A stretch of DNA of 64,000 bases from Candidatus Babeliales bacterium (GCA_020054235.1 JAGVLQ010000013.1:3571-67570); one strand, 5' to 3'; counted from the stretch's first letter, positions 1,264 through 28,793 are shown. Numbers and translations are program-made. Notes: generated by a model not told the origin, from the letters alone.

Positions 1264-2019
1264 ATGATTCAATTAAATGATGTACGTAAAAAATTTGGCT
1301 CAACATGGATAAGCAAGGGAGTTACCCTTGAAATCCCTCCTGGTCAAATGACCGTTATTATTGGTCGTTCTGGCGAAGGAAAATCAGTTCTCTTGAAACA
1401 AATTATTGGGCTTATAAAACCAACTTCTGGTCAAATAATGGTAGATGACATTGATGTTACTAAGCTAACAAATAATGAATTATCTATTATTTTCAAAAAA
1501 CTCGGTTATGTTTTTCAATTTGCCGCACTATTAGATTCACTCAATGTTTTTGAAAATATTTCCATAAAGCTTTTGCAGGATGGTATTAATAAAAATGAAG
1601 CCCTTGCAATAGCAAAAGAAAAATTATCACTCGTTCATTTGCCACAAAATATTTTATGGAAATATCCTTCTGAGCTTTCTGGTGGTATGCGTAAGCGTGT
1701 TGGCCTTGCACGCACCTTGACCACTAATCCAGAAATCATTTTATATGATGAACCAACTACCGGTCTTGATCCTGTTACTACTCGTGTTATTCATGAACTT
1801 ATGTATGACATGCAACAACGACTTAAGGTTACCTCAGTGGTAATTTCTCATGATATTGAAATTTTTAATTATGCTGACAATATCGCACTTTTACATGAAG
1901 GACAAATTCGATTTTTTGGTGATGCAAAAACAATTTGGCAATCAAATAATCCTTTTATCTATCAATTTATTCGCGGTCTTTCCGAAGGACCTATTCAAAC
2001 CGAAACACCTCAGTTGTAA
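1264..2019 (+). CDS. mlaF: MlaF-type ABC transporter ATP-binding protein
   Basis: Walker A GRSGEGKS, ABC signature LSGGMRKRVGLAR and Walker B ILYDEPTTGLD. Sits directly downstream of mlaE. Confidence 0.8.
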   Translation: MIQLNDVRKKFGSTWISKGVTLEIPPGQMTVIIGRSGEGKSVLLKQIIGLIKPTSGQIMVDDIDVTKLTNNELSIIFKKLGYVFQFAALLDSLNVFENISIKLLQDGINKNEALAIAKEKLSLVHLPQNILWKYPSELSGGMRKRVGLARTLTTNPEIILYDEPTTGLDPVTTRVIHELMYDMQQRLKVTSVVISHDIEIFNYADNIALLHEGQIRFFGDAKTIWQSNNPFIYQFIRGLSEGPIQTETPQL

Positions 2020-2083
2020 GATCTTTTTTCCATGATACACTAAGAAATATACAAATATTATTATTGAATAATAAGGCCACGTT

Positions 2084-3073
2084 ATGGAAACACAACAATT
2101 AAACAATCAATTTATTGAAGCAATAAAAGAAGAAGGTAACCACTTAGAACTTCTTAAACATGAAGTTAGTAAATTAATTGTTGGCAATGAAAAAAGCATA
2201 GATTTTATCATAATAGCATTGCTCTGTAATGGTCATATTCTTTTAGAAGGTGTTCCTGGTGTTGCAAAAACAACCACCATCAAAACAATTGCTCAAGCTC
2301 TTGGATTAACGTTTAAACGCATTCAATTTACTCCTGATCTTTTACCGGCAGATTTACTGGGTACTTTAATTTTTAATCCTAAAACCCATGAATTTGAAAC
2401 AAAAAAAGGTCCTATTTTTGCAAATTTAATATTAGCTGATGAAATCAATCGTACCCCAGCAAAAGTACAAGCAGCCTTGCTTGAATGCATGCAAGAACAA
2501 CAAGTCACTCTTGGCTCAACAACCTACAGTCTTGATAAGCCTTTTCTAGTTTTTGCCACTCAAAACCCTATTGAACAAGAAGGTACCTATCGATTGCCCG
2601 AAGCTCAAATCGATCGCTTTATGTTCAAATTAATTATCGAATATTTAAGCCCTGAACAAGAAAAACAAATTATTCAAAAATCAGGCATTAAAACCGTTAT
2701 TAATCCTGTATTTACTAAAGAATCTCTTTTTCAAGCACAAAAACTTGTGCAACAAATATATGTTGATCAAAAAATTATTGATTATATTATCGCGATTGTT
2801 TTTGCAACCAGAAATCCTCTTGACTATAACTTAAAAAAAATAAAGTCATTTATTCAATATGGTGTTTCACCTCGCGCAACTATAGCACTTCACCATGCGG
2901 CACAAGCCCAGGCATTTTTGAAAAAACGTCATTTTGTTATTCCCGATGATATAAAAGCTATTGCTCCAGCAATTTTGCGCCATCGCATCTCATTAAGTTA
3001 TGAAGCTGAAGCTGAAGAAGTTTCTCAAGATGAAATTATTACTACAATTCTCAATACTATTCCATCTCCTTGA
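2084..3073 (+). CDS. MoxR-family AAA+ ATPase
   Basis: LLEGVPGVAKTT (Walker A), LLADEINRTPAKVQAALLECMQEQQVT (Walker B/sensor region) and GVSPRATIAL are typical of MoxR/RavA-like ATPases. Confidence 0.8.
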   Translation: METQQLNNQFIEAIKEEGNHLELLKHEVSKLIVGNEKSIDFIIIALLCNGHILLEGVPGVAKTTTIKTIAQALGLTFKRIQFTPDLLPADLLGTLIFNPKTHEFETKKGPIFANLILADEINRTPAKVQAALLECMQEQQVTLGSTTYSLDKPFLVFATQNPIEQEGTYRLPEAQIDRFMFKLIIEYLSPEQEKQIIQKSGIKTVINPVFTKESLFQAQKLVQQIYVDQKIIDYIIAIVFATRNPLDYNLKKIKSFIQYGVSPRATIALHHAAQAQAFLKKRHFVIPDDIKAIAPAILRHRISLSYEAEAEEVSQDEIITTILNTIPSP

Positions 3074-3125
3074 GAAAAATTCCTCCAAATGACAAGTCAG
3101 CTCTTATAATCAATCTACATTCCGC

Positions 3126-3155
3126 TTGACAAAAAATAATTATGAAGGGTATTGT
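3126..3155 (+). promoter_or_regulatory. possible sigma70-type promoter of the secretin cluster
   Basis: TTGACA at 3126-3131, an 18-nt spacer, then TATTGT at 3150-3155. Sequence match only, in AT-rich DNA. Confidence 0.3.
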
Positions 3156-3185
3156 GTGAAAGTAATGTCAAAAAAAGGAATATTA

Positions 3186-4346
3186 ATGAAACATCCTTTT
3201 TGGCTGGTAAATAGTACTCTCTTATTGTTCTTTTTTGCCGCGCTATTATTTGCGTTTTTTTCTTGGCAACCAACTCCGATACGAGTTTCATTTGAACCAC
3301 GAGAAGAGTTAAAGCCAGTAAAAAAAGAACTTGCAAAAATTGATCTGAGCAAAATTTATACTAATGATCTTTTTAATACCTATGTCCAGCCATTGCCGAT
3401 ACCAAAAGAACCTGATTACACTAAACCCCTACCACAACCTCCTATGCCAAAACCACCAGCAATACCGGCAACGCCACCTATTAAATTTTTGGAGCCTTTA
3501 AAAATTAATTTACGAGGTATTATCGTTGCCACCGATGAACGGATGAATATCGCAGTTATTGAAGATGCAAAAACTACCCTAGCAAAAAATTATAAAATCG
3601 GTGATATGCTTGAAGATGCACAACTCATTCGTATTTTAAAAAATAAAATCATTCTTATTAGATCAAATGGCCAACAAGAAACTTTATATGTAACTCAACA
3701 TGATGCAGAATTAGAACAACTCCTACTACCAATAAATAATTGGTCATCTGTTATTAAAAAAGTAAGTGAAACTAAATACAATATAGATCCTGAGCTTTTT
3801 GTAGAAAAAATAAGAAACTTAGCTCAATTTATTGACGCATTAAATTTAATTACGGTATACCGTCAAGGAGAAAGTATTGGTTGCCGTGTTGGCAAATTAG
3901 AAAATAATTCATTAGGTATTGCACTTGGCTTAATGCAAGGAGATATTATTCAATCAATTAATAATATTCCTCTAACAACAACTGATAATCGCTTTGAAAT
4001 TTATAAATCAATTTTAGGAATGGTGCCAATAGGTAGTTTTACAGCAGTAATATTGAGAAAAAATCAACCTTTAACCATAACCTACACTTTAAATAAAATT
4101 GATGCCTTAAGCGAAGTTGAAACATCTACAGCAATAAAACCTATAATAATTAAACCTGATGAAAAATCACCAGAACAAATTGAACGAGAACAAAAAAAAA
4201 TATTGGAAGAAAAATATCGTTTTGCACCAACCGCTGAAGAATTACAAAAAAAAGAAAAACAAGATATGCTCAAAATGAGTCAAAAAAATAGTCGACTTCG
4301 TGAACGAAAAAACCGCGGAGTACTTTTAAATAACGTGAATGCATAA
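3186..4346 (+). CDS. GspC/PilP-like secretin-docking protein with C-terminal PDZ domain
   Basis: N-terminal TM segment (LVNSTLLLFFFAALLFAFF), Pro-rich linker, a GspC-HR/PilP-like beta domain (LRGIIVATDERMNIAVIEDAKT...IILIRSNGQQETLYV) and a PDZ-like segment (GCRVGKLENNSLGIALGLMQGDIIQSINNIPL). I prefer ATG 3186, which has AGGA at 3176-3179. ATG 3165 and the track's TTG 3126 are alternatives. The stop overlaps the next start (TAATG at 4344-4348). Confidence 0.6.
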   Translation: MKHPFWLVNSTLLLFFFAALLFAFFSWQPTPIRVSFEPREELKPVKKELAKIDLSKIYTNDLFNTYVQPLPIPKEPDYTKPLPQPPMPKPPAIPATPPIKFLEPLKINLRGIIVATDERMNIAVIEDAKTTLAKNYKIGDMLEDAQLIRILKNKIILIRSNGQQETLYVTQHDAELEQLLLPINNWSSVIKKVSETKYNIDPELFVEKIRNLAQFIDALNLITVYRQGESIGCRVGKLENNSLGIALGLMQGDIIQSINNIPLTTTDNRFEIYKSILGMVPIGSFTAVILRKNQPLTITYTLNKIDALSEVETSTAIKPIIIKPDEKSPEQIEREQKKILEEKYRFAPTAEELQKKEKQDMLKMSQKNSRLRERKNRGVLLNNVNA

Positions 4347-6883
4347 TGAAAATTAAAAAATTAATGCATGCTAAAATTTTTTTTCTTTGGTTCTTTAGTT
4401 CTACCTTTTGCATCACTTTGTTTGGCTATGCAAAAAAAAGAAAACCTGTAGAACAAGAAAAAACTATTGAAGCTGATTCTTCGATAACTACTACACAAAA
4501 CTCATTATCATCAAATTACCATGAAAATTATGAAGATAAACAAAAACCAATAAAACCTCCTATAAGACCTGAAAGTGCTACTGATGATAAAGATGATTTA
4601 ATTGAAGTAAATCTAGAAAACACTGATTTACCTAATCTTTTACAATGGGTTTCAGACGTTTTTGAAATAAATTTTCTTTCTGATGATGCACTTAAACCAC
4701 CTCCTCAAGGAGGAAAAACCTTAACTGGTAACAAAATAAGCTTTAAAACACACGCCCCCATAACAAAAAAGGAGGTCTGGGATCTTTTTGTCACGTTCTT
4801 GGATCTTTTTGGTTTTGGACTCGTACAAGGAACCATCCCAAATTTTTATCGTGTTATGCAAAACGATCCAAAAGTTGCTGCTTCCATCACAAAGGCACCA
4901 CTGCCTTCTTATATAAATATTCGTTGGGAAAAATTACCAAATAATGATACGACCATTCGCTATGTTTATTTTGTACAAAATAGTTCTCTTGCAACTATTC
5001 AATCAATCGTTGATGCATTTAGAAGCCAAAATTCTACACTCAAATCACTACCAGATCTCAATGCATTTTTATTAACTGATAAAGCTGCAAATATCCGTGC
5101 TGTTATGCAAGTTGTTGAAGAGCTTGACAGACTAACACAGCCAGAAGCACTTTCTGTATTAAAATTAAAAAATGCTGATGCTGATGAAGTGGTAAAATTG
5201 TATAATAACCTAACACAAGTACAAGATCCTCGAGGCCTTGCTGCGCGTATTTTAGGAACTGCAAAAAAACCAACCAGTGTTTACTTTCCAGAAACATTAC
5301 GTTTAATTGCTGAACGCAGAACCAATACCTTGATTATTCTTGGTGATGCAGAAGGTATTAAAAAAGTTGAAGATTTTATTATTAATTATGTCGATACTGA
5401 ACTCAAGCTTCCTTACTCGCCACTCTATGTTTATGACTTGCAATATACCAATGCTAAAGATATGGCTGATATTTTAACTGCTGTTACTAAGCCCCCAAGT
5501 ACTCCTGCTTCACAATTTGGCGGTGTCCGTGAAGGAGATAAATATTTACAACCTATTATTTTCCAAGCTGAAGAACAAGGTAATCGTTTGCTTATTAAAG
5601 CAGAAAAGGAAGATTATCTAAAAGTTCGTGAAATTATAAAGCAACTTGATGTCAAACAACCGCAAGTTGCAATTGAAGTTTTAATTGTAAATGTTATTGC
5701 AACCGATGATCGTGAACTTGGTGTACAAATTCGTAATAAAGATTCTAATACCGTAAGCAAAAATCTTGATTTCCAAACATCAGGATTTCCACTCACTGGT
5801 GGTTCAAAAGCACCACCACAAGTGCAGCCAGATTCAACTAATAATCCATCAGCCGGATCTTTAATGGCAAACTTAATTTCATTAGCGGTCGGCCAAACGC
5901 CAGGCTCTACCCTATTGTCTATTGCAAACACAAAAGATGGTGTAAATGCTTCTGGTGTTTGGGCAATTTTTAAATTACTCCAAGCCTATGCACGTACAAA
6001 TGTTATCTCTAATCCATTCTTGATAACCACCAACAAATATCCTGCTGAAGTTTCCATTGGCGAAACCCGCCGTGTACAAACTAGTGTTACTGCTGGTACA
6101 CAAAATACCTTTGGGTTCGGTGACGTTTCTGCTAATTTAGCAGTAAAAATAACCCCACAGATTAATAGTATTGGCATGATAAATTTAGCAATTGATATAA
6201 GTATCGACAATTTTACGGAAGCAGCAGATCCAAATGATGCAACCATTGATAGTAAAACAGTTCATACCAATGCTAATGTTGGTAATGGTGAGGTACTGGC
6301 TATTGGGGGATTACTCCAAACAACCGAAGCAGATATGACTGCCAAAGTTCCGATTTTAGGCGATATGCCTTTAATAGGCTGGTTTTTTAAAAGTAAAACA
6401 AAAACCAAAAGAAAAGATAATTTAATAGTATTTATTTCCCCACGCATTATTGAACCTCGTTTAGAAGGTGGCATGAATGAACATACAAAAGTAAAATCAT
6501 GTAAAGCTAAAGACTCATTTGGTGAAATGAGAACGCCAGCTGAAAAACGTGATCCTATTCATCGATGGTTCTTTAAAGATTATCCATGTGAAAATACTGA
6601 ATTTATAGACGATTTTATAGCACATCGTAATAATGAACCTTATTGTCGTGTTGCCTGTGAAGAATGCCCTGAACAAATAGATCCTGATTATGTATGCTGT
6701 CAAGAAACAAAGCGTTTTATTACGTCAGATGACAAAAGTCCAGCAAAAAAAGAGCATCCTATTATTGTAGAAAAAAATACTGATCCAAAGCAAAATTCCA
6801 TAAAGTTGGCAGCGCATAAAAAAAGTACAAAAAAATCGATTACACAATTTTTGCCACCTAAAAATAATGAGGGCGTGGCATGA
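4346..6883 (+). CDS. GspD/PilQ-family outer-membrane secretin, paralog A, with Cys-rich C-terminal tail
   Basis: N0-like domain (IEVNLENTDLPNLLQWVSDVFEINF), repeated N domains and the secretin core (VAIEVLIVNV...TNANVGNGEVLAIGGLLQ...VPILGDMPLIGWFFKSK...LIVFISPRII). Confidence 0.85.
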   Translation: MKIKKLMHAKIFFLWFFSSTFCITLFGYAKKRKPVEQEKTIEADSSITTTQNSLSSNYHENYEDKQKPIKPPIRPESATDDKDDLIEVNLENTDLPNLLQWVSDVFEINFLSDDALKPPPQGGKTLTGNKISFKTHAPITKKEVWDLFVTFLDLFGFGLVQGTIPNFYRVMQNDPKVAASITKAPLPSYINIRWEKLPNNDTTIRYVYFVQNSSLATIQSIVDAFRSQNSTLKSLPDLNAFLLTDKAANIRAVMQVVEELDRLTQPEALSVLKLKNADADEVVKLYNNLTQVQDPRGLAARILGTAKKPTSVYFPETLRLIAERRTNTLIILGDAEGIKKVEDFIINYVDTELKLPYSPLYVYDLQYTNAKDMADILTAVTKPPSTPASQFGGVREGDKYLQPIIFQAEEQGNRLLIKAEKEDYLKVREIIKQLDVKQPQVAIEVLIVNVIATDDRELGVQIRNKDSNTVSKNLDFQTSGFPLTGGSKAPPQVQPDSTNNPSAGSLMANLISLAVGQTPGSTLLSIANTKDGVNASGVWAIFKLLQAYARTNVISNPFLITTNKYPAEVSIGETRRVQTSVTAGTQNTFGFGDVSANLAVKITPQINSIGMINLAIDISIDNFTEAADPNDATIDSKTVHTNANVGNGEVLAIGGLLQTTEADMTAKVPILGDMPLIGWFFKSKTKTKRKDNLIVFISPRIIEPRLEGGMNEHTKVKSCKAKDSFGEMRTPAEKRDPIHRWFFKDYPCENTEFIDDFIAHRNNEPYCRVACEECPEQIDPDYVCCQETKRFITSDDKSPAKKEHPIIVEKNTDPKQNSIKLAAHKKSTKKSITQFLPPKNNEGVA

Positions 6884-8499
6884 TAACTGATATTTTTATT
6901 CCAGAAAAAATTGGTTCCTATTATTTACTCCCAAAACGCATTCTCGGCTTTGATCTAACCAAAACACATGTTTATGCTTCTCAATTATATCTTTCAGGTA
7001 ATTCTATAATTCTTGAAAAATTTTATCAGGAAGTAATAGACCCTGACACTACTAAGCCATACCCTGAACGCGTTGCTCAGGCTATACGCACCATCACTGA
7101 TCAAGCACCACCATGCAATGAAATACGATCGTCACTTTCAAGCATTGTTGTAGTTTTTAAAGAATTAACGGTCCCTTTTTTGGAGCCAGAAAAAATCTCG
7201 ATGATTCTCTACTTTGAAATAGAACAGTATTTACCATTCCCTCTGCAAAATGCTTTAGTTGATTTTATTATTACCAAACAAAATAACGAAGAAAAAACAT
7301 CAACCATTTTTGTAGCTGCAGTTCAAAAAGAATATGTAGCAACACAATTAGCATATTTCGAACTTGCTGGCATAAACCCACAAACAATTACTTTAGATCT
7401 TTTTGATCTCTATGGTTTTTATCGAGAAATACCTGCCTATAATCATTTAGGTAACATTGTGACTTTAATCGATATTGAATTTAATGCAACGCGCATAGCC
7501 TTTATTGTCAATAAACAACTAAAATTAATAAGAACACTACCTCGCGGCATCGCGCATGTGGCAAAGAATATTGCACAAAATCTTAATATACAAAATGGCA
7601 AAGCTTTAGAAGATATAATTCGTTTTGGCTTAGAAAAACTTGATGATGAAAATTATAAAAAAGTTGCATCTATTGCTATGAATGAGTATTTGCAAGATAT
7701 TAAATTTACGCTGCAATCTTTTTTGTCTCAAACAATAAAATATACCGCTATTGATCAAATTTTATTACTTGGAAGAGGATCAGAAATAAATCATATTGAA
7801 AAATTCTTTTCTGAAAACTTACAGATGCATTGCAGCATATTTGATAGTAATGCATTATTAAAAATGTCACAGGTAACTATCAAAAATAGCACTCGAATTC
7901 CTCGTGCTAATGTAATTAGTTTGAGCACAACTTTTCCAAGTCCAATAACAGAAAACTTTAATTTAAGACAACAAGAATTTGCCCCTTCAGCAAATATACA
8001 ATTTTATAAACAATTTTTTTGTATGGTAACACTCACCTGTCTTATCTTAATGACATTATTTGGTCACAGCTACTGGCAAGTACGCAAGCTTCATTTAGCC
8101 GCACAAGCAATGGAACGTTCTGTTATTACCAAATTAAATGAACTTGATTTAACTGATGCAAGAGATTTTAAAAGAGCCATTGATGATGCTGAAGAAAAAG
8201 TCTCAAAAGAAGAAGAGCTCTGGTTTGGCTTTTCTCGCCAAACTCGTTTTTCATTTTTAAAAGCATTACAAGATTTGAGTACTGCCATTGATCGTAAAAG
8301 TCTGGGTCTTCAACTGAAAAAAATGATAATTACCACCACTGAGATTACGATTGAAGGTGAAGTTAAAGGTTTTGAAGAACTCAAACTATTAGAAAGAGCA
8401 TTAAAGGAATCAAAATTGTTTGCGTATGTTCCTACACTACAAGAGCTAAAATTTAGTGAAAAGTTGCTTTTACGAAAAAATAGTGAAGGAGCTCAATGA
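6880..8499 (+). CDS. PilM/GspL-like actin-fold assembly protein fused to a TM segment and PilN-like periplasmic domain
   Basis: ATGA overlap with the secretin stop (6880-6883). PilM-like N-terminus (ILGFDLTKTHVYASQL...), one TM segment near residue 390 (FFCMVTLTCLILMTLFG) and a coiled C-terminal region. Confidence 0.6.
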   Translation: MITDIFIPEKIGSYYLLPKRILGFDLTKTHVYASQLYLSGNSIILEKFYQEVIDPDTTKPYPERVAQAIRTITDQAPPCNEIRSSLSSIVVVFKELTVPFLEPEKISMILYFEIEQYLPFPLQNALVDFIITKQNNEEKTSTIFVAAVQKEYVATQLAYFELAGINPQTITLDLFDLYGFYREIPAYNHLGNIVTLIDIEFNATRIAFIVNKQLKLIRTLPRGIAHVAKNIAQNLNIQNGKALEDIIRFGLEKLDDENYKKVASIAMNEYLQDIKFTLQSFLSQTIKYTAIDQILLLGRGSEINHIEKFFSENLQMHCSIFDSNALLKMSQVTIKNSTRIPRANVISLSTTFPSPITENFNLRQQEFAPSANIQFYKQFFCMVTLTCLILMTLFGHSYWQVRKLHLAAQAMERSVITKLNELDLTDARDFKRAIDDAEEKVSKEEELWFGFSRQTRFSFLKALQDLSTAIDRKSLGLQLKKMIITTTEITIEGEVKGFEELKLLERALKESKLFAYVPTLQELKFSEKLLLRKNSEGAQ

Positions 8500-9065
8500 A
8501 TGCTCTTAATCAAATAAAAGATTATATTGACCAACTTGATAAAAAATATTTCCAGCGTTATGTAATTATCGCTGGTTCATTGGTACTTATTATTTCTTCT
8601 TTAATTCTTTATCGCTATTATAGAAATATTTTCTTTTATAAAAAAAAGATTGAGACCATAAATCACAAGCGAAAAGAAGTAAAAGATATTCTCGAACGAT
8701 TTGAAATGGTAAAAATTCAACAAACTGAAGTTGATAATCTTTTAGAAAAAGATAAAGACTTTAAAATTGGTGGCTATTTTAATGAAGTTATAACTAAAAT
8801 CGGCATTGCTCAAAATAAAACCCGTGAACCAGAAACATCTTCCGAAGAACTTGATAATGGCTATACCGAAAGAAAATTATATGCAAGTTTTTCGAATATA
8901 ACCATGCAAAAATTAACCGAATTACTTGATACCATCGAACAAAATGAACGTATTTATACTAAAGAAGTTGAAATGTATAAACCTGATACAGGCCGAACAA
9001 TCAATGTTAATTTGCTTATTGCAACGCTTGAGCCTAAAATTGAAACAACAGAATTAGCGGAGTAA
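8496..9065 (+). CDS. PilO/GspM-like inner-membrane assembly protein
   Basis: ATGA overlap at 8496-8499. Short cytoplasmic N-terminus, one TM segment (YVIIAGSLVLIISSLILY), a coiled coil and a small C-terminal domain. The call rests on architecture and position only. Confidence 0.45.
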   Translation: MNALNQIKDYIDQLDKKYFQRYVIIAGSLVLIISSLILYRYYRNIFFYKKKIETINHKRKEVKDILERFEMVKIQQTEVDNLLEKDKDFKIGGYFNEVITKIGIAQNKTREPETSSEELDNGYTERKLYASFSNITMQKLTELLDTIEQNERIYTKEVEMYKPDTGRTINVNLLIATLEPKIETTELAE

Positions 9066-9072
9066 TATAGTT

Positions 9073-11667
9073 ATGAACATGCGTTTATATTTTTTGTATT
9101 TTTTCTTTTTTATTAACACCTGGTTTATTCAAAATATCCGTAGCGAAGGTGAACCGGTCACTACAAAAAAAGTTTCTCAAAAAAGAACAAACAAAAAAAA
9201 GAAAATAATCTTCAGTTTTGCCGATAAACCACTGGTCGAAATAATTAATGAACTTGCAGCAGAAAAAAATGAAAATATTATTTTGCCGCAAGGTGCACAA
9301 GCTATCACCACCAAAGTTACCTATCATTATGCTGAACCTTTAACCATTGATCAAGCCTGGCAACAATTAAGTACTATATTGGCCTTGGCTGGCTATAGTA
9401 TAGAGCCAGAAGCAAGTATTCAAACTATTCGTAAAATAGATCAAAATATCAATCGCCAAATTCTTTCTGTCTACATTAATGAACCGCTGGAAAATATACC
9501 GGATACTGAAAATATTATTCGCGCTGTCTTTTATCTTGCCAATATAAATTTAAAAACAAGCTTCCAAGACCTAAAAAACATACTACAGGACATGCTCTCT
9601 CAAACAGCAAAAGACAACGGCATTCTCTCAGATGCAAAAACAAATGCACTTATTTTAACGGATCAAGCAACAAATATAAAAGCAGCAATGCGCATTATTC
9701 TTGAACTCGATAAAGGAGGTATGCGCGATAGCATTGAAATTATTCCTTTATATTACACAAGTTCTGATCTTGTTGAGCGACTATTCAATGAAAATTTACT
9801 TGCTTCAAAACAGCAACCTGGTGCTGGCGCCGGCACTAATGGAGGATCTCAACCTGAACAACCCTCATATTTTCCTAAAAATACCAAAATTATCGGCTTA
9901 CCTCGCAATAATACCCTCGTAATTATGGGAACACCATTTGCAATTGATTTAGTTAAAGATTTTATCATTAAATATATTGATAGGCCTTTAGAATCTGGCG
10001 AATCAATTCTCCATGTCTATGATTTGCAATATCTTGACGCAAAAGATTTTGCACCAGTGTTGCAACAAATTTTGCTATCAGGTCAAATGCCAGGTCAACA
10101 AGCAACTGGTCAAACAGCAACAGGACCAAAACAATATTTTAAAGATGTTATTGTAGTAAATGAAATACCAAGAAAAACAAAGGAACAGCTTCAACCAACG
10201 ACTGTACAAGGCGAGACGGAACAATTTAAAGGATTAGCTCCCTCTGAAGGAGCACAAGTTGGCGGAAATCGTCTTGTTATTGCCGCACGTAAAAAAGATT
10301 GGGTTCGTATAAAAGAACTTATTGAACAGCTTGATAAACCACAATTACAAGTTGCACTTGAAGTTATTGTTTGTGATGTAACGTTAAATAGTAACAAATT
10401 ACTTGGCAGCCAATTGCGTGATAAAGATGGTTTTAATAAAAGCATCTCAGAACGAGTTAATTTTCAAACTGCTCATTTAAGTCAGCCAATTTTAAAAATG
10501 CCATCTGCAGTAACAGATCAAAGACCAGCAAATGCGTTAATGTCTAATTTACTACAGCTTGGAGATCCTTTTGGAGAAAATGAAAACTTAGCAACTTCAG
10601 CTGAACCAGGTTCTTTAGTATTTTCATTAAAAGATTCTGCTAATGGTGGTGTATGGAGTTTTTGGCAGATTCTTAATAATTACACCAATGCAACGCTCAT
10701 TGCTCAACCATTTGTCATAACGCAAAATCATCAGCAGGCAACTGTTACTATTGCACAGCAACGTTTTCTTGCTGGTAAAGCCGATAGTTCAAATGTTGCG
10801 GTAAAAGTAGGTAATGAATGGGTTACTGCATCATTCACCATTGATATTTTGCCACATATAAGTGCTACCGGAAATATTAATCTACAAATTACCGTAAAAA
10901 TAAACCAGTTTGTTGCTGGTGCTGAGACAGGAAATAATACCCGAGTTACTCGAGCCGTTCAAACAAATGCGAACGTTGGCAATGGAGAAATTTTAGCACT
11001 TGGTGGTCTTACGCGAGAAAGTGAAAATATTCAAGCATCTGAAACACCTCCTTTTAGCAATTTTCCCATAATTGGTTGGTTTTTTAAGAAAAAACAACAA
11101 GTTAAGCAACGTAATAATCTTTTAATTCTCATGTCGCCAACGATTATCCAACCTCGCTTGAAAGGTGGTATCGATACCTTTACGGATAAAAAACTTACTT
11201 TTGCACAAGAACAGCTTGATGAAAGTATGTGTTTTGACAATCTACGTGATCCGGTAAACAGATGGTTCTTTAAACCTAATCCTTTTTATGGAAAAGAGAC
11301 CGTAGAGGAATACACGAAAAAAACAACACAAGAAGATATTTCTCAAAATAATCAGGAACAGAAACAGGCAAATAATCAACAAGTAGTAGAAAATTCATAT
11401 GCTCCAACTGTTTGTGTTTCTCGTGGAGAATTATCCGCACAGGCCTGCGCGATGAAAGAACTCGTTAAAAATGAAAAAAATCCTTTAACGTTGCCTATTG
11501 ATGATAAATCCGAAAAACCAATTTTTAGTGCTAAAAAGCAAGAAAAAACCCAATCTTCGAATGATTCACCAAATACACAACAATTAAAAGATTTGCTTCA
11601 AGCGGCCGATAATCCTCTACTTATTCATCAGCAAGAAGAGAAAGGGCCAATTCATCTTCAATCGTAA
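9073..11667 (+). CDS. GspD/PilQ-family outer-membrane secretin, paralog B, with Q/N-rich C-terminal tail
   Basis: N0-like domain (FSFADKPLVEIINELAAEKNENIIL) and secretin core (VALEVIVCDV...TNANVGNGEILALGGLTR...FPIIGWFFKKK...LLILMSPTII). Clearly paralogous to 4346-6883. Confidence 0.85.
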   Translation: MNMRLYFLYFFFFINTWFIQNIRSEGEPVTTKKVSQKRTNKKKKIIFSFADKPLVEIINELAAEKNENIILPQGAQAITTKVTYHYAEPLTIDQAWQQLSTILALAGYSIEPEASIQTIRKIDQNINRQILSVYINEPLENIPDTENIIRAVFYLANINLKTSFQDLKNILQDMLSQTAKDNGILSDAKTNALILTDQATNIKAAMRIILELDKGGMRDSIEIIPLYYTSSDLVERLFNENLLASKQQPGAGAGTNGGSQPEQPSYFPKNTKIIGLPRNNTLVIMGTPFAIDLVKDFIIKYIDRPLESGESILHVYDLQYLDAKDFAPVLQQILLSGQMPGQQATGQTATGPKQYFKDVIVVNEIPRKTKEQLQPTTVQGETEQFKGLAPSEGAQVGGNRLVIAARKKDWVRIKELIEQLDKPQLQVALEVIVCDVTLNSNKLLGSQLRDKDGFNKSISERVNFQTAHLSQPILKMPSAVTDQRPANALMSNLLQLGDPFGENENLATSAEPGSLVFSLKDSANGGVWSFWQILNNYTNATLIAQPFVITQNHQQATVTIAQQRFLAGKADSSNVAVKVGNEWVTASFTIDILPHISATGNINLQITVKINQFVAGAETGNNTRVTRAVQTNANVGNGEILALGGLTRESENIQASETPPFSNFPIIGWFFKKKQQVKQRNNLLILMSPTIIQPRLKGGIDTFTDKKLTFAQEQLDESMCFDNLRDPVNRWFFKPNPFYGKETVEEYTKKTTQEDISQNNQEQKQANNQQVVENSYAPTVCVSRGELSAQACAMKELVKNEKNPLTLPIDDKSEKPIFSAKKQEKTQSSNDSPNTQQLKDLLQAADNPLLIHQQEEKGPIHLQS

Positions 11668-12874
11668 GCAAACGATTGTATTTTGCTAATCGTTCACCGC
11701 GAGATAACCCACCGGCTTTTATTTGACCGGCATTAGTTCCAACCGCCAAATCAGCAATAAAATCATCATTAGTTTCACCAGAGCGATGAGAAATAATTGT
11801 TGTAAAACCATGTTCCTGGCAAACAGCAATTGCTTGTAAAGTTTCTGTAATGGTCCCAATTTGGTTCGGCTTTATAATTGCTCCTGTTGCTAATTGTTTT
11901 ATGATTCCCTGATAAATTCTTCCTGGATCTGTAGCAAAAATATCATCACCTATTATTTGTACTTTTTTACCCAAAGTTTCTGTCAATGTAGCCCAGCCTT
12001 CTAAATCATGTTCTTGAATGCCATCTTCAATTGAACAAATTGGATAATGTTCAACAAGCTTTTGATAGGAAGAAATTAATTCAGTACTATTATACGTTTT
12101 ACCGTACCATGTATAGAGATTCGTTTTGGCATCATATAAATGAGAAGCAGCAACATCAATTGCTATTTTAAAAAAGTCACTACCATTCATTTTTTCTATG
12201 GCTTCTGTTAACAAATCAAACGCCTGTATATCATTTTCAAGCATAGGTGCAAAACCACCTTCAATTCCAATAAGACTTTGATAGTTTCTTTTTTTTAGTA
12301 AATCCTTGAGCGTATAAAAAAATTCAACCCCATATTCAATGACTTCACGAAAATTCTTTGCTCCCATAGGAACAATCAAAAATTCTTGCGTTAATAGATT
12401 ATTATCCGTATGAACACCGCCAGCAATCATATTAAATAAAGGAAAAGGAAGTATTACCGATTCATGACCACACAGTTGAGCAATAAATTCATATAATTCA
12501 AAACCATGCAATGCGGCCTGAGCTTTGACAACAGCAATACTAACAGCCAACATGGCATTTGCTCCAAGTTTACTTTTGTCAGGAGTATCATCAAGCGCAA
12601 CCATGATTTGATCCATAACAACAACATCAGGCTCTTTACCTATAATTGCGGGAGCTATTATATCTTCAATCACCGTAATAGCCTTACGCACACCCATACC
12701 TTGCAAACGCGTACCACCATCACGTAATTCTTTAGCCTCATAACTGCTGGTAGATATTCCTGCAGGAACACTAGAAGTGACATAAAAATCATCTTCCAAA
12801 AACAATTGGCATTCAATAGTAGGAACTCCACGAGCATCAAAAATCTCTCTGGCATGAACTTTAGTTATTTTCAT
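11621..12874 (-). CDS. eno: enolase
   Basis: MKITKVHAREIFDARGVPTIE..., SHRSGETNDDFIADLAVG and KAGGLSRGERLAKYNRLL are canonical enolase motifs. Confidence 0.95.
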   Translation of the reverse strand: MKITKVHAREIFDARGVPTIECQLFLEDDFYVTSSVPAGISTSSYEAKELRDGGTRLQGMGVRKAITVIEDIIAPAIIGKEPDVVVMDQIMVALDDTPDKSKLGANAMLAVSIAVVKAQAALHGFELYEFIAQLCGHESVILPFPLFNMIAGGVHTDNNLLTQEFLIVPMGAKNFREVIEYGVEFFYTLKDLLKKRNYQSLIGIEGGFAPMLENDIQAFDLLTEAIEKMNGSDFFKIAIDVAASHLYDAKTNLYTWYGKTYNSTELISSYQKLVEHYPICSIEDGIQEHDLEGWATLTETLGKKVQIIGDDIFATDPGRIYQGIIKQLATGAIIKPNQIGTITETLQAIAVCQEHGFTTIISHRSGETNDDFIADLAVGTNAGQIKAGGLSRGERLAKYNRLLTIEDELALSLLADE

Positions 12875-13044
12875 TTTTTCCTTTTTTTTCTAAATATTCT
12901 TACCTTATTTCAGCCTACCTCAAGGTTCAGCCTGGACACAAGCAATTTCAGTTAGAATATAAATTTCATGCAAACTATTGACGTTTTTCAAAAAAATATG
13001 CCATTATAAAATAAGCTAGAAAAAAAACAATAAGGAGATTTAGT

Positions 13045-13623
13045 ATGAACTTTAAACATTTTATCTTACTTGTCACAATAGTCACTTCCTATAGCTCTAA
13101 AATTTTTTCTGTAGAAGAAAATGATGTTTATAATGAAAAAAGAGGGAAAAACATGATTTCTTTAGGATTATCCGAAAAAGATAGAAAAAACATTGCAGAA
13201 AAACTCAACATTTTACTTGCAAATGAATACCTTTTGTATACAAAAACACTGAAGTATCACTGGAATGTAAAAGGAAAACACTTTGGTCCACTGCATGCTC
13301 TTTTTCGTGAACAATACGAAGCCTTGTTTAAATTTATTGATGATATTGCTGAACGTTCCCTTGCACTCGGTTTTGATGCAGATGGAAGCTTAGAAATCTT
13401 TGCCAAAAAAGCTACCATTACCGAAAATAACGGCAAAAATCCAGAAGCAGAACAAATGATAGAAAATTTATTAAAAGACCATGAAACAATAATCCAACAA
13501 ATTAGAACTGATATCGTGTTAAGTGCTGAACTTAATGACTGGGGTACTAACAATTTTCTTTCTGACCTGGTTATGAAACACGAAAAAATAGCCTGGATGT
13601 TACGAGCGCATTTGCAACATTAA
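13045..13623 (+). CDS. dps: Dps-family ferritin-like protein, possibly with an N-terminal signal peptide
   Basis: LLANEYLLYTKTLKYHWNVKGKHFGPLHALFREQYE is the Dps ferroxidase-site region. AAGGAG at 13032-13037 precedes ATG 13045. An internal ATG at 13153 would give a conventional-length Dps. Confidence 0.8.
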   Translation: MNFKHFILLVTIVTSYSSKIFSVEENDVYNEKRGKNMISLGLSEKDRKNIAEKLNILLANEYLLYTKTLKYHWNVKGKHFGPLHALFREQYEALFKFIDDIAERSLALGFDADGSLEIFAKKATITENNGKNPEAEQMIENLLKDHETIIQQIRTDIVLSAELNDWGTNNFLSDLVMKHEKIAWMLRAHLQH

Positions 13624-15889: not shown

Positions 15890-16999
15890 TTAATTTTGTC
15901 TAAATTTGTCCTTTTTTGAAGTCAAAAGCACTTCTAAATTAGCTTGATAAACTTTGCAATCATTGGTCTTTATTGTCAAAGAATCTTCAGACCAAAAAAT
16001 TGAGCGTATGGCTTTTTTAACTTTAAAAAAACAATCAGCACATTGGGACTCAAGATTGCAAATACTGAAGGAATCTTGAGCCCCAACAGCTAGATATTTT
16101 CCAGTTGGATCAAACCCTAAAGAAAGTATTTCATCGTTTCCCTGTTTTATCCTTATTGAAGGATCATTTGAATTTTTCTCTAAATCCCATATTTCAATAA
16201 ACCCATACTCATTACCCGCTGCAATTAATTTTTCATTATAATGAGCTAAGGTTTTTATAAAATACTTACTATTCAACTCTCTCATATAATCGCTAGAAGG
16301 ATCAGCATCCATAATAATAACGCTATTACTATAAGAAACAGCGTACACTACTTTTTTGCTTATCGGTAAACCAATAAAAGATTTTTTTTTGCATTTTTCA
16401 TCGAGCATACCTGTAACAAAAACTTTGTTATCCTTTGATTGATAAGTGTTCGCCTTTTTTTCTAGTTCTTCTAATTTGGCCATACGAATTGGCGATAAAA
16501 GGTCGGAAGATTTAAATGTCAAAATATTATACTTAACTAATTTTTCAGTCTTTTGAAGTTCACTACACTCCTTTTCTTTTTTCATGTCAAAAAACTTAAC
16601 TACCTGATTGTTAATAAAACAAAAAATGAGACTTTTTTCATCACAAAATGATAAATTTTCTTGCGATAACTTACCAATACAAAATTTTTGTGGTGTATTA
16701 AGAGATGGGTTTCTTATCTCTAACCAAGAATTCTCCGAAGGAGGAGCTGTCAATGAAACAATTTTTTTTTTATCAGGACTTGTTGCTGTCAAAAAAAAAT
16801 CAGGCTCTGTGTTAAGAAAGTAGAAGGGCTTTGCTGTATTTTCTGGAGAGAAGTTTGTTGACTTTTTTTCTGTTATTCCTCTAAGATCATCTCCCAGTTT
16901 TGGAATTAATTGTTTTTTTTTCAGCTTTGGCGTCTCTGGTTCCATAGCTATTAAATACAATGGAGCAAAAGTAATTAAAAGAAAAAAAAAATTTTTCAT
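15890..16999 (-). CDS. exported WD40-like beta-propeller protein
   Basis: N-terminal signal-like segment (MKNFFFLLITFAPLYLIA) and WD-type blades (GFIEIWDLEKN; EILSLGFDPTGKYLAVGAQDSFSICNL). I prefer ATG 16999 over TTG 17020. Confidence 0.45.
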   Translation of the reverse strand: MKNFFFLLITFAPLYLIAMEPETPKLKKKQLIPKLGDDLRGITEKKSTNFSPENTAKPFYFLNTEPDFFLTATSPDKKKIVSLTAPPSENSWLEIRNPSLNTPQKFCIGKLSQENLSFCDEKSLIFCFINNQVVKFFDMKKEKECSELQKTEKLVKYNILTFKSSDLLSPIRMAKLEELEKKANTYQSKDNKVFVTGMLDEKCKKKSFIGLPISKKVVYAVSYSNSVIIMDADPSSDYMRELNSKYFIKTLAHYNEKLIAAGNEYGFIEIWDLEKNSNDPSIRIKQGNDEILSLGFDPTGKYLAVGAQDSFSICNLESQCADCFFKVKKAIRSIFWSEDSLTIKTNDCKVYQANLEVLLTSKKDKFRQN

Positions 17000-17145
17000 A
17001 AAAAACCAAAACTTGCGCAATTTTTAATTTAAATTGATAATTAAAAATTGCATTTATCATGCATAATAAAAATATAAAAAGATGATTCTATCTTAACTTA
17101 GAAAGTTTCAAAATCAGTGTCAATAATCTTTGTTGTTAGGCAATC

Positions 17146-19143
17146 TTAAAAACGATACTCAATACCAACGTTGAAAGTAAAAGCAATATTATCACTTAAC
17201 AAAGGATTTAAATCGTTAGTAATACCGGTGGCATCAGGACGATCAATAAGCCGCAACTCTTCTCTCGTTAGAGGGGTCCCTTTGATATCAGTGTAATGTC
17301 CGCCAGGGATAAATGCAGAACTTACGGCATAAATTTTACAACTATCAAGCATGGTTGCATCAAACATTATATTCAACTCCAAGCCTAAATAGTTTCTAGC
17401 AAATTTATCTGGAAACGACAATCTTGTTTCGCGATTAAATGCTTTTGTAGCTTTTTGCTGCCAATAAGCTATAGCATTCGGATTCACATTAAAAGTTCTA
17501 TCACAATAACGACCATGATAATGCAAAGCAGACCCAACAAAAATAATATTGCTAAAACCTGAAACAACTGAGGGTAAGCGCTCTATAACATCAGAAGATA
17601 TTGGCAAAGATAATGGCCGAGGCGCTCTGCCAACGCCACCAAGTAAAAATACACTGCGCACCCTGTAACCAGAATAAATTTCTTGCAAACCAATAAATCC
17701 TTTAAAATCACCATCAACATCACTTGAATTTGGATTATCAAGATCTTGATTTGGGTTTTCATCACCAGATGCAACCCCCACTGTTGCAGCAAGTTTTAAA
17801 TCACCCTTTGAATCCAATTTATATCCTGCATCAATTACAGACATCCACCCTTTAAAGGTATTGGTTGATGGGTTGCGGAATCGATTAATATCATTTACTA
17901 AAGTTGTTCCGTTGACAATGCCTATTGGCTGCCCATTTTGTGACGCATCTTGCGCAGAAGTATTCACCAATTGTTGGGCTTGGCTATTAGGAACATAAAT
18001 TGTTTTTGAACCATTTACCGCATTATCTCGTACACGTGAATTAACAAGCGTCACAACTCCATTTCGGTTTTCAAACTCAACCTGATTACGGTCAATACCG
18101 CGCACTTTTTGATGCCCAAAGTTTTTACCAACATCAAAACCGAATTCAAAGTCGCTAAAATAACATTCTCCCGCTAAACCAAGTGTTGCTAATTTACTGT
18201 TAGCCGAAGCATCAATTTCAACGCGCTGCTCAGGTGCATTATTGTAAAGAATATATGGCTCAAAAATAACCTTACTTCCTGGCTCCTGAATTGGATACCA
18301 TCGCAATCTTCCGGCCACAACAAAATCTATAACCCCTGGACCACGCTCCTGCAATCTTCTTCTGCCAAACTCTTGGCCTCGAACCTTTAATGCTGTATTG
18401 GCAAGACTATCACTTTTATTTTGCAAAATTGCTCCATAAAAATCATACAATAATTTTTGAGCAACAACATCACCGGAAAATTTAAAACCAAAAGCATATT
18501 GATCAATCACGTTATTTGAATAGAACCCTAAAACTCGAGGTCCTACCGCAAATGCATTGCCTAAAGAAATACCTCGACCTAATTCAAAAGGAAAAGCACC
18601 TAAAGTGAAGAAATGTTTATTTTCAAAATTGACACCAAACGCATTATTAATACAGAATTTTAACCAAAGTTCTCGAATCCAAATAATGTGGCGTGATATA
18701 AAATGTCTATGCTCACCAAATACCGCCTCAAGAATTTTTAAATTCGTATCAGTTGTTTGTGCTATACTTTCAGTATTTCCCCAAACACCCTTATTACGAA
18801 AGGTAAGAAAAAATTCGCTTACATCATAACCAAAAAAATCTTTACCGTATAAAAGGTTAAAATTAAAATCTATCGTATGTCGATTAACTATAATCTTGTC
18901 AGAACGATTAAGATTATTTAAAAGATTAGCATTTTTTAGATAAAAACTTTCAGGTCTAAATTTAATTTGCGTACGAAATTCTAAATTTCCAAGATGAACA
19001 AAAAGAGGTTCTTTCGCCGAACTTTTTGTTATTGCACTATGATCCCTTCCAACTTTTTTATCTTCTGCCAAAGAAATAGTATTAAAACAAGTAAAAATAA
19101 ATAAAAAAATATAGAAAAGATTAAAAAACATGGAAATCCTCAT
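17146..19143 (-). CDS. large outer-membrane beta-barrel protein, family unassigned
   Basis: Signal peptide ending SLAEDKK, alternating amphipathic beta-strand pattern, many G/N/Y/F residues, and a C-terminal ...NVGIEYRF with terminal Phe as in OMP beta-signal sequences. Confidence 0.6.
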   Translation of the reverse strand: MRISMFFNLFYIFLFIFTCFNTISLAEDKKVGRDHSAITKSSAKEPLFVHLGNLEFRTQIKFRPESFYLKNANLLNNLNRSDKIIVNRHTIDFNFNLLYGKDFFGYDVSEFFLTFRNKGVWGNTESIAQTTDTNLKILEAVFGEHRHFISRHIIWIRELWLKFCINNAFGVNFENKHFFTLGAFPFELGRGISLGNAFAVGPRVLGFYSNNVIDQYAFGFKFSGDVVAQKLLYDFYGAILQNKSDSLANTALKVRGQEFGRRRLQERGPGVIDFVVAGRLRWYPIQEPGSKVIFEPYILYNNAPEQRVEIDASANSKLATLGLAGECYFSDFEFGFDVGKNFGHQKVRGIDRNQVEFENRNGVVTLVNSRVRDNAVNGSKTIYVPNSQAQQLVNTSAQDASQNGQPIGIVNGTTLVNDINRFRNPSTNTFKGWMSVIDAGYKLDSKGDLKLAATVGVASGDENPNQDLDNPNSSDVDGDFKGFIGLQEIYSGYRVRSVFLLGGVGRAPRPLSLPISSDVIERLPSVVSGFSNIIFVGSALHYHGRYCDRTFNVNPNAIAYWQQKATKAFNRETRLSFPDKFARNYLGLELNIMFDATMLDSCKIYAVSSAFIPGGHYTDIKGTPLTREELRLIDRPDATGITNDLNPLLSDNIAFTFNVGIEYRF

Positions 19144-25954: not shown

Positions 25955-27424
25955 TTATGCAGCCAAATAATTTCTTATCAGCGTAAACCATTTATTAGAT
26001 TGAGCAAATTTTGTTTTTTGATAAGACTGATGAATTCTTCTTTCTGGAAAATAAATTGAAATGCCTTGTGTTTTGATAAGATTCTTTCCTGCAACATTTT
26101 CAATAACAATATTTTTTACTATGTCCATACTGATCCTTAATGCTTCTTGCAGTTCTTTAAGAATTTTATTACCAATTTCAATATGAGTGAATTCCATTTT
26201 TTTTGAATTGGCCAGAAGATTTGTGCATAGGTGATGCCAATCTAAGTAGCTTGGTTCATCAAAATGTGTGCAATAAAGTTTATGACGACTCAATTTTATT
26301 GCTTCTCTGACCGAGTTATTTTTTTGAATTTTTATTGCTTCAATTAATAATTCAGCAATACGATCTATGGTTATTTCAAGATCCAAAAAGCCCGACAAGT
26401 CTATTGCAGATTGTGTATAATCATTGGTAATTGTGCTGTAGGCATTTTCATATGATTTGACAATATGTTTAGCAAAGGCTTTAGGTTCCATTGACTCATT
26501 TAAAAATGGTAACAAAATTTTATAGTAATTATAACCGGTGCCTAATTCTACTTCTACTGAAGCTGTCATATAATGAGCATGATTTTTTACGATATTTGCT
26601 ATTTCTATCATTGACATTAAGCAAGCGTCAAAACAAATAATGCTAAATTTTTTACCGCCTAAATAATTCTTGCATATAGTACTTAGGGCAAAATCAAGAT
26701 CTTGATTGTTAAGAGCATGGCCTGTTGAATCATCAAAACAAATTGATCGATGCTCGGGACAGCAGGTAGCTTGAACAAAATCAATAAACGAGATGCTTCT
26801 ATCAAGTTCAAGTAAGTTGCTTTCAGGATTAAACATAAACAGTGGTAATGGATTTATACTGCGATGTCGCACAACATCAAGAGCTCCAGTTCCATGATTC
26901 CAAAGTATAAGAACATAATTTTTTGCAGGATAATTAGTAATAGCCCACTTACAGCAATCGATTAATGTTGCAGGTAAACCACTGTCCATTTTTTGGCTGT
27001 TCGGATCGTTTTGGTTGGTTACGATTAATTTATTTTTTTCAATATAATAACGTTTAGTTACTTTTTTGTTGCCAGCAACACGTGTATCTAGCTGCGTAAC
27101 TATATTTATATATTTGCTGGAGCCAACATCCGACTGTTCTTTTAAATTTTTTCGTGCAAATGGTGCAAGATCATTATCTGCTGCCATATAGGTAATAAAA
27201 GTCCAATCTTTTAATTCAAGTTTTGCCTTAATGGCATGAGCGTTGCTAGGATCAGTGCAAAGATTCTCCTGAGAGTTAGTTAAATATGTATCGGCAAAAC
27301 TTTGCTCTTCGTTTTCCAAGATGGGTAGGGCATGAATACCTTGCTCTAAGCAAAAAGTACTGGAGATAATTAAAAGAAAAATAATTAATAAATTTTTATG
27401 AGGGTTAAATTTATTAAATTTCAT
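25955..27424 (-). CDS. secreted clostripain-like cysteine peptidase (C11 family)
   Basis: Signal peptide, YMAADNDL, LILWNHGTG (catalytic His region) and ICFDACLMS (catalytic Cys region). Confidence 0.65.
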   Translation of the reverse strand: MKFNKFNPHKNLLIIFLLIISSTFCLEQGIHALPILENEEQSFADTYLTNSQENLCTDPSNAHAIKAKLELKDWTFITYMAADNDLAPFARKNLKEQSDVGSSKYINIVTQLDTRVAGNKKVTKRYYIEKNKLIVTNQNDPNSQKMDSGLPATLIDCCKWAITNYPAKNYVLILWNHGTGALDVVRHRSINPLPLFMFNPESNLLELDRSISFIDFVQATCCPEHRSICFDDSTGHALNNQDLDFALSTICKNYLGGKKFSIICFDACLMSMIEIANIVKNHAHYMTASVEVELGTGYNYYKILLPFLNESMEPKAFAKHIVKSYENAYSTITNDYTQSAIDLSGFLDLEITIDRIAELLIEAIKIQKNNSVREAIKLSRHKLYCTHFDEPSYLDWHHLCTNLLANSKKMEFTHIEIGNKILKELQEALRISMDIVKNIVIENVAGKNLIKTQGISIYFPERRIHQSYQKTKFAQSNKWFTLIRNYLAA

Positions 27425-28619: not shown

Positions 28620-28793
28620 AAAAACCAACTTAAAAATTTTTATAAATTTCCATTAGTCTATCATATAATTGGGTGTTTGCCATAAATAAAAATCGTTTAA
28701 AGTCGCGTTTTTTGCTAATTTTTATTAATATACTCAACATTATTACTTATAATCATCAAAAAGCTTTGTTTTATTTTGAGAAGGGTGCGCTTA

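Follow-up and report, generated by a model that had tools for sequence, protein, structure and literature searches.

How many outer-membrane pores does a bacterium build when one operon encodes two secretins? The question is raised by positions 3126-11667 of a 64,000-nucleotide stretch of Candidatus Babeliales DNA (GCA_020054235.1, JAGVLQ010000013.1:3571-67570), which we call the window and from whose first letter all coordinates are counted. The original prediction, made from the sequence alone, placed here a translationally coupled envelope cluster of T2SS (type II secretion system) or T4P (type IV pilus) type that carries two divergent secretin paralogs. The analysis described below indicates that the five genes, gspC-gspD1-gspL-gspM-gspD2, are likely to form the outer-membrane and alignment operon of the T2SS of the Dependentiae (Babeliales). 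The five genes, together with the evidence on which each assignment is based, are as follows.

3186-4346, plus strand: gspC, with a transmembrane segment, an HR domain and a PDZ domain (Pfam T2SSC); the mechanical open reading frame (ORF) runs from TTG 3126
4346-6883, plus strand: gspD1, secretin A, 845 aa (Pfam, NCBIfam, PDB, AlphaFold2)
6880-8499, plus strand: gspL equivalent, 539 aa, with a PilM-type actin-like cytoplasmic domain, a transmembrane segment and a PilN/GspL_C-like periplasmic domain
8496-9065, plus strand: gspM, 189 aa, bitopic (profile-profile comparison)
9073-11667, plus strand: gspD2, secretin B, 864 aa (Pfam, NCBIfam, PDB, AlphaFold2)

These genes constitute a single tight plus-strand operon in a window of ~33% G+C. 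An ORF scan returned them as consecutive frames (3126-4346, 4346-6883, 6880-8499, 8496-9065 and 9073-11667), in the order and at the positions originally predicted, and a re-reading of the junctions likewise bore out the predicted overlaps. At the gspC/gspD1 junction, TAATG at 4344-4348, the stop codon TAA (4344-4346) overlaps the ATG at 4346-4348; gspD1 and gspL share the ATGA at 6880-6883, and gspL and gspM the ATGA at 8496-8499. Between the gspM stop codon (9063-9065) and the ATG of gspD2 at 9073 lies a spacer of 7 nucleotides (TATAGTT).

The same arrangement recurs across the phylum. Loci for comparison, numbered here with an L, were retrieved by encoding-contig look-ups, by a single-protein scan of GTDB genomes (9 loci) and by a profile scan of metagenome contigs (80 loci), and comprise ~55 Dependentiae-type loci in total and ~35 further secretin loci, 24-27% identical, from other phyla. 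Those from other phyla are canonical T2SS clusters in which gspE follows gspD and pseudopilin genes lie nearby; the database matches of secretins A and B that carry a name are assigned to Candidatus Babeliales or Dependentiae, and the window itself belongs to a metagenome-assembled Dependentiae (Babeliales) genome. The order moxR-gspC-A-L-M-B, which begins with an upstream AAA+ ATPase gene, is found in every Dependentiae locus with enough flank, including those of the Chromulinivoraceae, whose A orthologs are 36-37% identical to the window protein, and in most related loci a convergent enolase gene follows secretin B. A and L keep their ATGA overlap in 36 of 48 loci, L overlaps M in 30 of 41, and the C-to-A and M-to-B gaps usually measure 0-24 nucleotides. 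Because it is repeated in every sufficiently long related locus, the arrangement is not due to chance. None of the related loci places the two secretins in separate, complete systems, an arrangement that would have counted against the original prediction. Two loci with a Dependentiae-type cluster, L008 and L011, come from GTDB records that read 'uncultured Pseudomonadota bacterium', a label that is probably a taxonomic misassignment of metagenome-assembled genomes (MAGs).

To which machine does the operon belong? By sequence criteria the cluster is assigned to a T2SS and not to a T4P, because the gspC product exceeds the T2SSC cutoff, the small fourth protein aligns with GspM, the third protein bears the GspL signature of canonical clusters, and relatives carry gspF-K. 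The gspC product scores 38.2 bits on Pfam T2SSC (cutoff 27) and combines the HR domain with a PDZ domain, the latter being one of the two partners, PDZ or coiled coil, that mark a GspC; its PDZ matches that of DegQ (E 3.3e-4). All NCBIfam GspC models remain below cutoff, GspC_delta giving 92.5 bits under a cutoff of 150. The gspL product matches PilM_2 at 1.1e-23, with weak matches to T2SSL and PilN, and the profile of its orthologs matches PilM 3jc8 at E 7e-30. The same signature, PilM_2 with PilN, GspL_C and T2SSL, is found in the GspL of the canonical T2SS cluster L056, where the genes run L, M, an N-like gene, C, an AAA_22 ATPase, D and E. The 189-aa fourth protein by itself has no Pfam match, and a PDB sequence-profile search with its ortholog profile returned chance-level matches only. 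In a comparison of profiles, 31 of its orthologs align end to end with seven canonical-cluster GspM proteins (hhalign 97.6%, E 2.7e-12, 169 columns); the three of these seven that were scanned all pass Pfam T2SSM. Given the signature shared with L056 and this profile match, the PilM-PilN-like fusion is read as the GspL equivalent and the small protein as GspM, so that profile comparison and Pfam signature together point to the GspL + GspM pair of an assembly platform. To judge from these sequence signatures, such a fusion is what GspL normally looks like in T2SS clusters outside the Gammaproteobacteria.

The profile searches that the original prediction had proposed for all five proteins thus recognised GspC, both secretins and GspL, and MoxR upstream, with GspM reached through its orthologs. 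Of the mixed 'T2SS/T4P-type' label the T2SS half is retained; the T4P half falls to the GspM profile, the GspL signature and the gspF-G-H-I-J-K genes of relatives. Likewise, the predicted 'PilM-PilN fusion' does contain PilM_2 and a weak PilN match but is equivalent to GspL, and of 'PilO/GspM-like' it is the GspM part that the profile comparison supports. The PilMNOPQ set of a type IVa pilus is not what the operon encodes: PilM is fused to a PilN-like domain, and GspC occupies the place of PilP. Genuine pilMNOPQ clusters, in the outgroup loci L076 and L085, look quite different; these two loci had been considered as dual-secretin loci and were set aside, since each holds ordinary, separate pilMNOPQ and T2SS clusters.

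Closer examination of the two secretins reveals the same plan in both. Secretin A consists of a signal peptide, a disordered linker, N0-N1-N2-N3, the core, a helical S-like region with the sequence RDPIHRWFF, and a disordered tail; secretin B shares this architecture, but its N-terminal linker is short, its N3 contains ~45 inserted residues and its motif reads RDPVNRWFF, again followed by a disordered tail. The insertion in A lies in N0. As originally claimed, both have an N0 domain, repeated N domains and a full core: each shows three Secretin_N stretches and a Pfam Secretin match over model positions 2-169 of 169, with N0 scoring 25.3 bits in A and 23.9 bits in B, just under the 27-bit cutoff. 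Both therefore possess the elements of a GspD-type secretin, namely N0, N1-N3 and a secretin core. TIGR02517 is covered over positions 1-591 of 600 by A and 2-591 by B. The top PDB match of both is GspD 5zdh, at 2.4e-43 (151.6 bits) for A and 6.7e-24 (87.6 bits) for B. AlphaFold2 models, built from 70-sequence alignments, have a pLDDT of 72.6 (A) and 75.4 (B) and show N0-N3, a helical C-terminal region and an equal number of long core strands; the best fold match of both is PulD 6hcg (A 8e-32; B 2.9e-33 over 732 columns). The motif RDP(I/V)xRWFF (A residues 736-743, B residues 726-733) is near-invariant in both paralogs, lies ~30-45 residues past the secretin core and is lacking from outgroup GspDs. 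The tails beyond it (A 751-845, B 746-864) are ~100 residues long, rich in K, Q, E and N, poorly conserved and modelled with low confidence; motif and tail together span approximately 6551-6880 in gspD1 and 11248-11664 in gspD2.

The original prediction held the two secretins to be only distantly similar to each other, a description that does not survive direct comparison. A and B are 31% identical over 777 residues by BLASTP (E 4e-112), their matches to solved GspDs (151.6 and 87.6 bits) and to the Nitrospirota GspD of L012 (127 and 77 bits) fall well below the match to each other, and each is the other's nearest relative outside its own orthogroup. The phylogeny that had been suggested as a check on an old lineage-specific duplication was built by neighbour-joining from 124 secretins over 636 columns with 100 bootstraps, with 35 GspDs from canonical T2SS clusters as the outgroup. 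A and B form one clade against these 35 in 100 of 100 bootstraps; secretin B is monophyletic in 79 of 100, and in one divergent lineage (L045, L046) the copies at the A position join the B side basally, through a very short branch. Eight derived sites are common to A and B, one of them inside the C-terminal RDP(I/V)xRWFF motif. The tree thus identifies A and B as sister paralogs, produced by a duplication in the Dependentiae stem that, from their placement, predates the sampled diversity of the phylum.

Has one of the sisters since decayed, leaving a remnant of the tandem duplication that no longer forms a channel? Secretin B lies below A on all secretin models and is split in two loci, L003 and L014, as such a remnant might be, but it is intact in 38 loci with all domains conserved. 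At 98 outgroup-conserved columns B retains residues as well as A does (mean retention 0.55 and 0.57, over partly different subsets in the N domains), and its structural model is that of a complete secretin. The ratio of nonsynonymous to synonymous substitution (dN/dS), taken from the least saturated pair, is 0.147 for A and, lower still, 0.097 for B: both secretins are under purifying selection. Every domain is conserved in both orthogroups, all members have signal peptides, and no core region is lost from either paralog, so the loss of gate or lip regions that would have spoken against the original prediction is not seen. The split genes occur in two long-read assemblies (L003 15137-18242 and L014 15138-17804; ENA, contigs named 'contig_N'), where secretin B is divided into two ORFs. 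The split in L014 looks like an indel or assembly error and not a pseudogene, because in L053, which comes from the same organism, the gene is intact and encodes 887 aa. A remnant is thus very improbable and already contradicted by the data presented here; sequence and models both suggest that the two secretins are functional and that neither is degenerate.

A different fate has been proposed for one copy. According to the passages on secretion and pili in Yeoh et al. 2016 (PMC4776705), pilQ is absent from, and two gspD copies are present in, all TM6 genomes, and one gspD copy may replace pilQ, which is posed there as an open question; the corresponding passage of Deeg et al. 2019 (PMC6561590) mentions a 'derived pulD channel'. 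On this account, put forward in those passages of both papers, one copy would serve as PilQ for a T4P or competence pseudopilus; this would most likely be B, which is the more derived, and A would serve secretion. B is indeed farther from canonical GspD, as its lower score against 5zdh attests, and the window contains a ComEC-like ORF at 27495-28628. On the PilQ model TIGR02515, however, B scores 124 bits and A 160 bits, neither reaching the cutoff of 284; B is moreover sister to A, has GspD-type N0-N3 and PulD as its best fold match, and sits directly after gspM inside the T2SS operon. No pilN/O/P/Q-type genes and no second pilin set were seen in or near any Dependentiae locus retrieved, and the 'PilM' of Dependentiae genomes is the GspL equivalent, so the published T4P signal in this phylum may partly be an annotation effect. 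Taken together, these observations render a PilQ role for either copy unlikely.

The operon encodes neither the motor nor the pseudopilus of a T2SS. As originally noted, the window has no ATPase, platform or pilin gene: neither a motif scan nor tblastn, the latter run with two GspE sequences and a set of Dependentiae GspF-K proteins, found gspE, gspF or gspG-K (no tblastn match below E 0.1). In four relatives (L025, L058, L095 and L096) gspF (T2SSF), gspG (T2SSG) and four further pilin-like genes with N_methyl matches form an operon. In L025 and L058 this gspF-K operon lies ~3 kb upstream of moxR on the same contig and the opposite strand, and in L095 and L096 it is followed by an MlaD gene. 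The genes run gspF-G-H-I-J-K at L025 1-4501 and L058 1-3120, both on the minus strand; in other lineages the operon is elsewhere in the genome. For GspE, neither the window nor any of the Dependentiae flanks gave a Walker-A or tblastn match, and gspE never adjoins gspF in the four relatives.

Several of these results weigh against the T2SS assignment. The gspF-K locus is observed only in relatives, outside this window; no GspE was found within 10 kb of either T2SS locus in any Dependentiae contig; a prepilin peptidase was not located in the window or the related loci; and the NCBIfam GspD equivalog scores (A 280.3, B 227.2) do not reach the cutoff of 351.35. On these scores A and B are divergent members of the GspD clade, below equivalog level.

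If the assignment is correct, then from established knowledge of the T2SS GspL and GspM would make up the inner-membrane platform and GspC would connect that platform with the N0 domain of the secretin. Powered by an ATPase encoded elsewhere, a GspG pseudopilus would drive folded, Sec-exported effectors through the secretin into the host, and peptidases, ankyrin proteins and WD40 proteins are candidates for such effectors. What two secretins would contribute is the weakest step of this explanation, namely their division of labour. Our tentative preference is for two homo-oligomeric GspD-type pores, expressed from one transcript and served by one GspC/L/M platform, with subfunctionalised periplasmic N domains. 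Separate pores are favoured because solved GspDs are homomeric, the N0 domains evolve nearly independently, each paralog keeps its own subset of ancestral residues in the N domains, the paralogs carry insertions in N0 and N3 respectively, one relative has a third copy, and the XphA/XqhA pair of Pseudomonas offers a precedent. All solved GspD entries contain 15 chains of one sequence. The third copy is found in a Babeliales MAG (L007 12583-14925), where an A-like, full-length secretin of 780 aa with Secretin_N and Secretin matches sits between A and gspL, joined through overlaps of stop and start codons. The near-independence of the N0 domains emerges from a mirror-tree analysis of covariation, in which pairwise distances across 21 genomes were compared after the MoxR and enolase distances had been regressed out. 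Between the N0 of A and the N0 of B covariation is slight (partial r 0.20), and the HR domain of GspC is tracked somewhat better by the N0 of A (0.40) than by that of B (0.27).

The same analysis also yields one of several signals that run counter to separate pores. A and B as wholes covary with a partial r of 0.85 (cores 0.80) versus 0.50-0.59 for other operon pairs, which is suggestive only, because shared fold, composition and membrane environment confound the comparison. No sites fixed differently between A and B orthologs were found, as co-assembly would allow. The two genes belong to one predicted transcription unit and are strictly co-retained in genomes of ~1 Mb, and a single GspC stands opposite two secretins, unlike the situation in XphA/XqhA.

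These signals agree at least as well with a second arrangement, in which A and B are obligate partners in a single hetero-oligomeric secretin, built as a mixed ring or as two stacked, nested or interlocking rings, and constitute the sole outer-membrane pore. The tight spacing of the operon, the retention of the pair in all ~45 complete loci despite genome reduction, and A-B covariation far above that of other operon pairs all fit such an assembly, as do the similar dN/dS of the two genes and the presence of a single GspC with a single GspL/M set; two secretin-core paralogs are kept in the mitochondrial T2SS, too, and are read there as an elaboration of the pore (PMC8134430). Literature searches on heteromeric or dual secretins, however, gave no natural heteromeric secretin. 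The solved GspDs are homo-15-mers, and an odd number of subunits forbids 1:1 alternation. Specialised heteromer interfaces would predict differently fixed A and B sites, the very sites that were not found, and an insertion in the N0 of A together with one in the N3 of B would give mismatched periplasmic rings. With the covariation confounded as described, a heteromeric pore is possible but doubtful. Such a pore may be connected with the unusual Dependentiae envelope, for which no lipopolysaccharide genes are reported and in which we saw no pilotin gene.

How does this operon, with its two pores as we tentatively read it, compare with known secretion systems? It resembles the canonical T2SS (e.g. 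Klebsiella Pul, PDB 6hcg, or the delta/Nitrospirota-type clusters L012 and L056-L094) in the HR and PDZ domains of GspC, in the N0-N3, secretin core and helical C-terminal region of GspD, in a bitopic GspL with an actin-like cytoplasmic domain, in GspM, and in the GspF-G-H-I-J-K operon of Dependentiae relatives. Unlike canonical systems, the Dependentiae operon holds two GspD paralogs, the system is spread over at least three loci with gspE apart from both gspD and gspF, and no gspN was seen in Dependentiae. The secretins differ from canonical GspD in their RDPxxRWFF motif, long disordered tails and sub-equivalog scores. Upstream, the Dependentiae have a MoxR gene where some outgroup clusters have an AAA_22 (GspA/ExeA-like) gene. 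The AAA_22 ATPase, encoded between gspC and gspD in, e.g., L056 (8272-9141), is unrelated to MoxR and is a possible positional analogue.

The original prediction also held that known operons encode one secretin per inner-membrane platform, a rule with known partial exceptions in XphA/XqhA and in the mitochondrial GspD and GspDL. In the passage of PMC6567927 that draws upon Michel, Durand and Filloux 2007, XphA/XqhA of Pseudomonas aeruginosa is described as an alternative GspC-GspD pair for Xcp. As in the Dependentiae, a second secretin is there served by existing inner-membrane components of a T2SS, but by that account XqhA is accompanied by a GspC of its own (XphA), is encoded away from the xcp locus and has separate regulation; every Dependentiae locus has only one gspC, with the two secretin genes in one operon. 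The mitochondrial T2SS of some protists, with GspD and GspDL (Horvathova et al. 2021, PMC8134430), similarly has two secretin-core paralogs in one T2SS-type system, their roles unexplained, but it is eukaryotic, its secretins are shortened to the C-domain, separate proteins carry the N domains, and GspDL has diverged strongly (PMC8134430).

In the TM6/Dependentiae surveys (PMC4776705, PMC6561590), the passages on these same genes concern gene content only, and those passages contain neither the shared operon nor the sister relationship, the GspL and GspM identities or selection data. Our literature searches, on secretion in the Dependentiae and on dual or heteromeric secretins, turned up nothing further than Yeoh 2016 and Deeg 2019. 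Two gspD copies across TM6 genomes were thus already known from the relevant passage of PMC4776705; what appears to be new is that the two share an operon, that they are sisters and that the rates of A and B covary tightly.

The operon is flanked by three further features.

2084-3073, plus strand: moxR, an AAA+ ATPase of the MoxR family (Pfam AAA_3 9.7e-65 and AAA_lid_2 2.1e-23)
3126-3155, plus strand: promoter-like site TTGACA-18-TATTGT in the moxR-gspC spacer
11659-11678, plus strand: terminator-like hairpin and T-run at the gspD2 stop codon

The MoxR AAA+ gene was found immediately upstream of the cluster, where it had been predicted, and its product has both the AAA_3 core and the AAA lid of that family. 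It adjoins gspC in 39 of 39 related loci that reach that far, typically across a gap of ~90-130 nucleotides, and is probably a separate or additional transcription unit; the usual VWA partner of MoxR was not seen adjoining it. The genes beyond moxR vary among Dependentiae lineages, with moxR itself constant. The promoter-like site at 3126-3155 is the top plus-strand match within 1900-13100 (10 of 12 positions), but such sites are no commoner than in shuffled sequence, and as a predicted promoter of the gspC operon it is a lead only. It also bears upon the start of gspC, whose mechanical ORF opens with TTG 3126. Because this TTG falls inside the -35 hexamer, AAGGA precedes ATG 3186 and the alignments of gspC orthologs begin at residue 16-21, translation probably starts at ATG 3186, with ATG 3165 a further possibility. 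Terminator-like hairpins, too, are no commoner than in shuffles, and only its position supports the one at 11659-11678. The 3' ends of gspD2 and of the convergent enolase gene overlap by 47 nucleotides (window 11621-11678), and the hairpin lies inside the overlap.

The remainder of the window encodes housekeeping genes and eukaryote-like repeat proteins. Just upstream of moxR are secG, mlaE and mlaF (149-2019; likewise in L013), and an MlaD gene directly follows the gspF-K operon of two relatives (L095 14648-16312 and L096 14913-16496); with mlaE and mlaF by moxR and MlaD after gspF-K, T2SS and Mla lipid-transport genes are neighbours at both loci. A clostripain-family (C11) peptidase (25955-27424, minus strand) and two WD40 beta-propeller proteins (33402-35048, plus strand; 15890-17020, minus strand) have hydrophobic N-termini and are plausible T2SS-secreted effectors. 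The ComEC-like ORF (27495-28628, minus strand) encodes 377 aa that match the 'Competence' domain of ComEC only in part (13-145 of 270 profile positions), and would be a short or truncated ComEC or one with a wrongly called start. A 665-aa protein (17146-19143, minus strand) has a signal-peptide-like N-terminus, a C-terminal YRF and no Pfam match, and may be a lineage-specific outer-membrane beta-barrel.

The Dependentiae (TM6) are widespread obligate parasites of protists, with genomes of ~1 Mb and a very large share of proteins with signal peptides. Given this parasitic lifestyle, these small genomes and the many proteins with signal peptides, the T2SS is probably the main route by which Dependentiae deliver host-manipulating effectors. 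To our knowledge, all secretins solved so far are homo-oligomeric, and the Dependentiae pair is therefore a natural test case either for heteromeric secretin pores or for one platform that serves two pores. Two parallel pores would, if true, be a modest variant of a known machine; if A and B instead make one pore, it would be the first natural heteromeric secretin.

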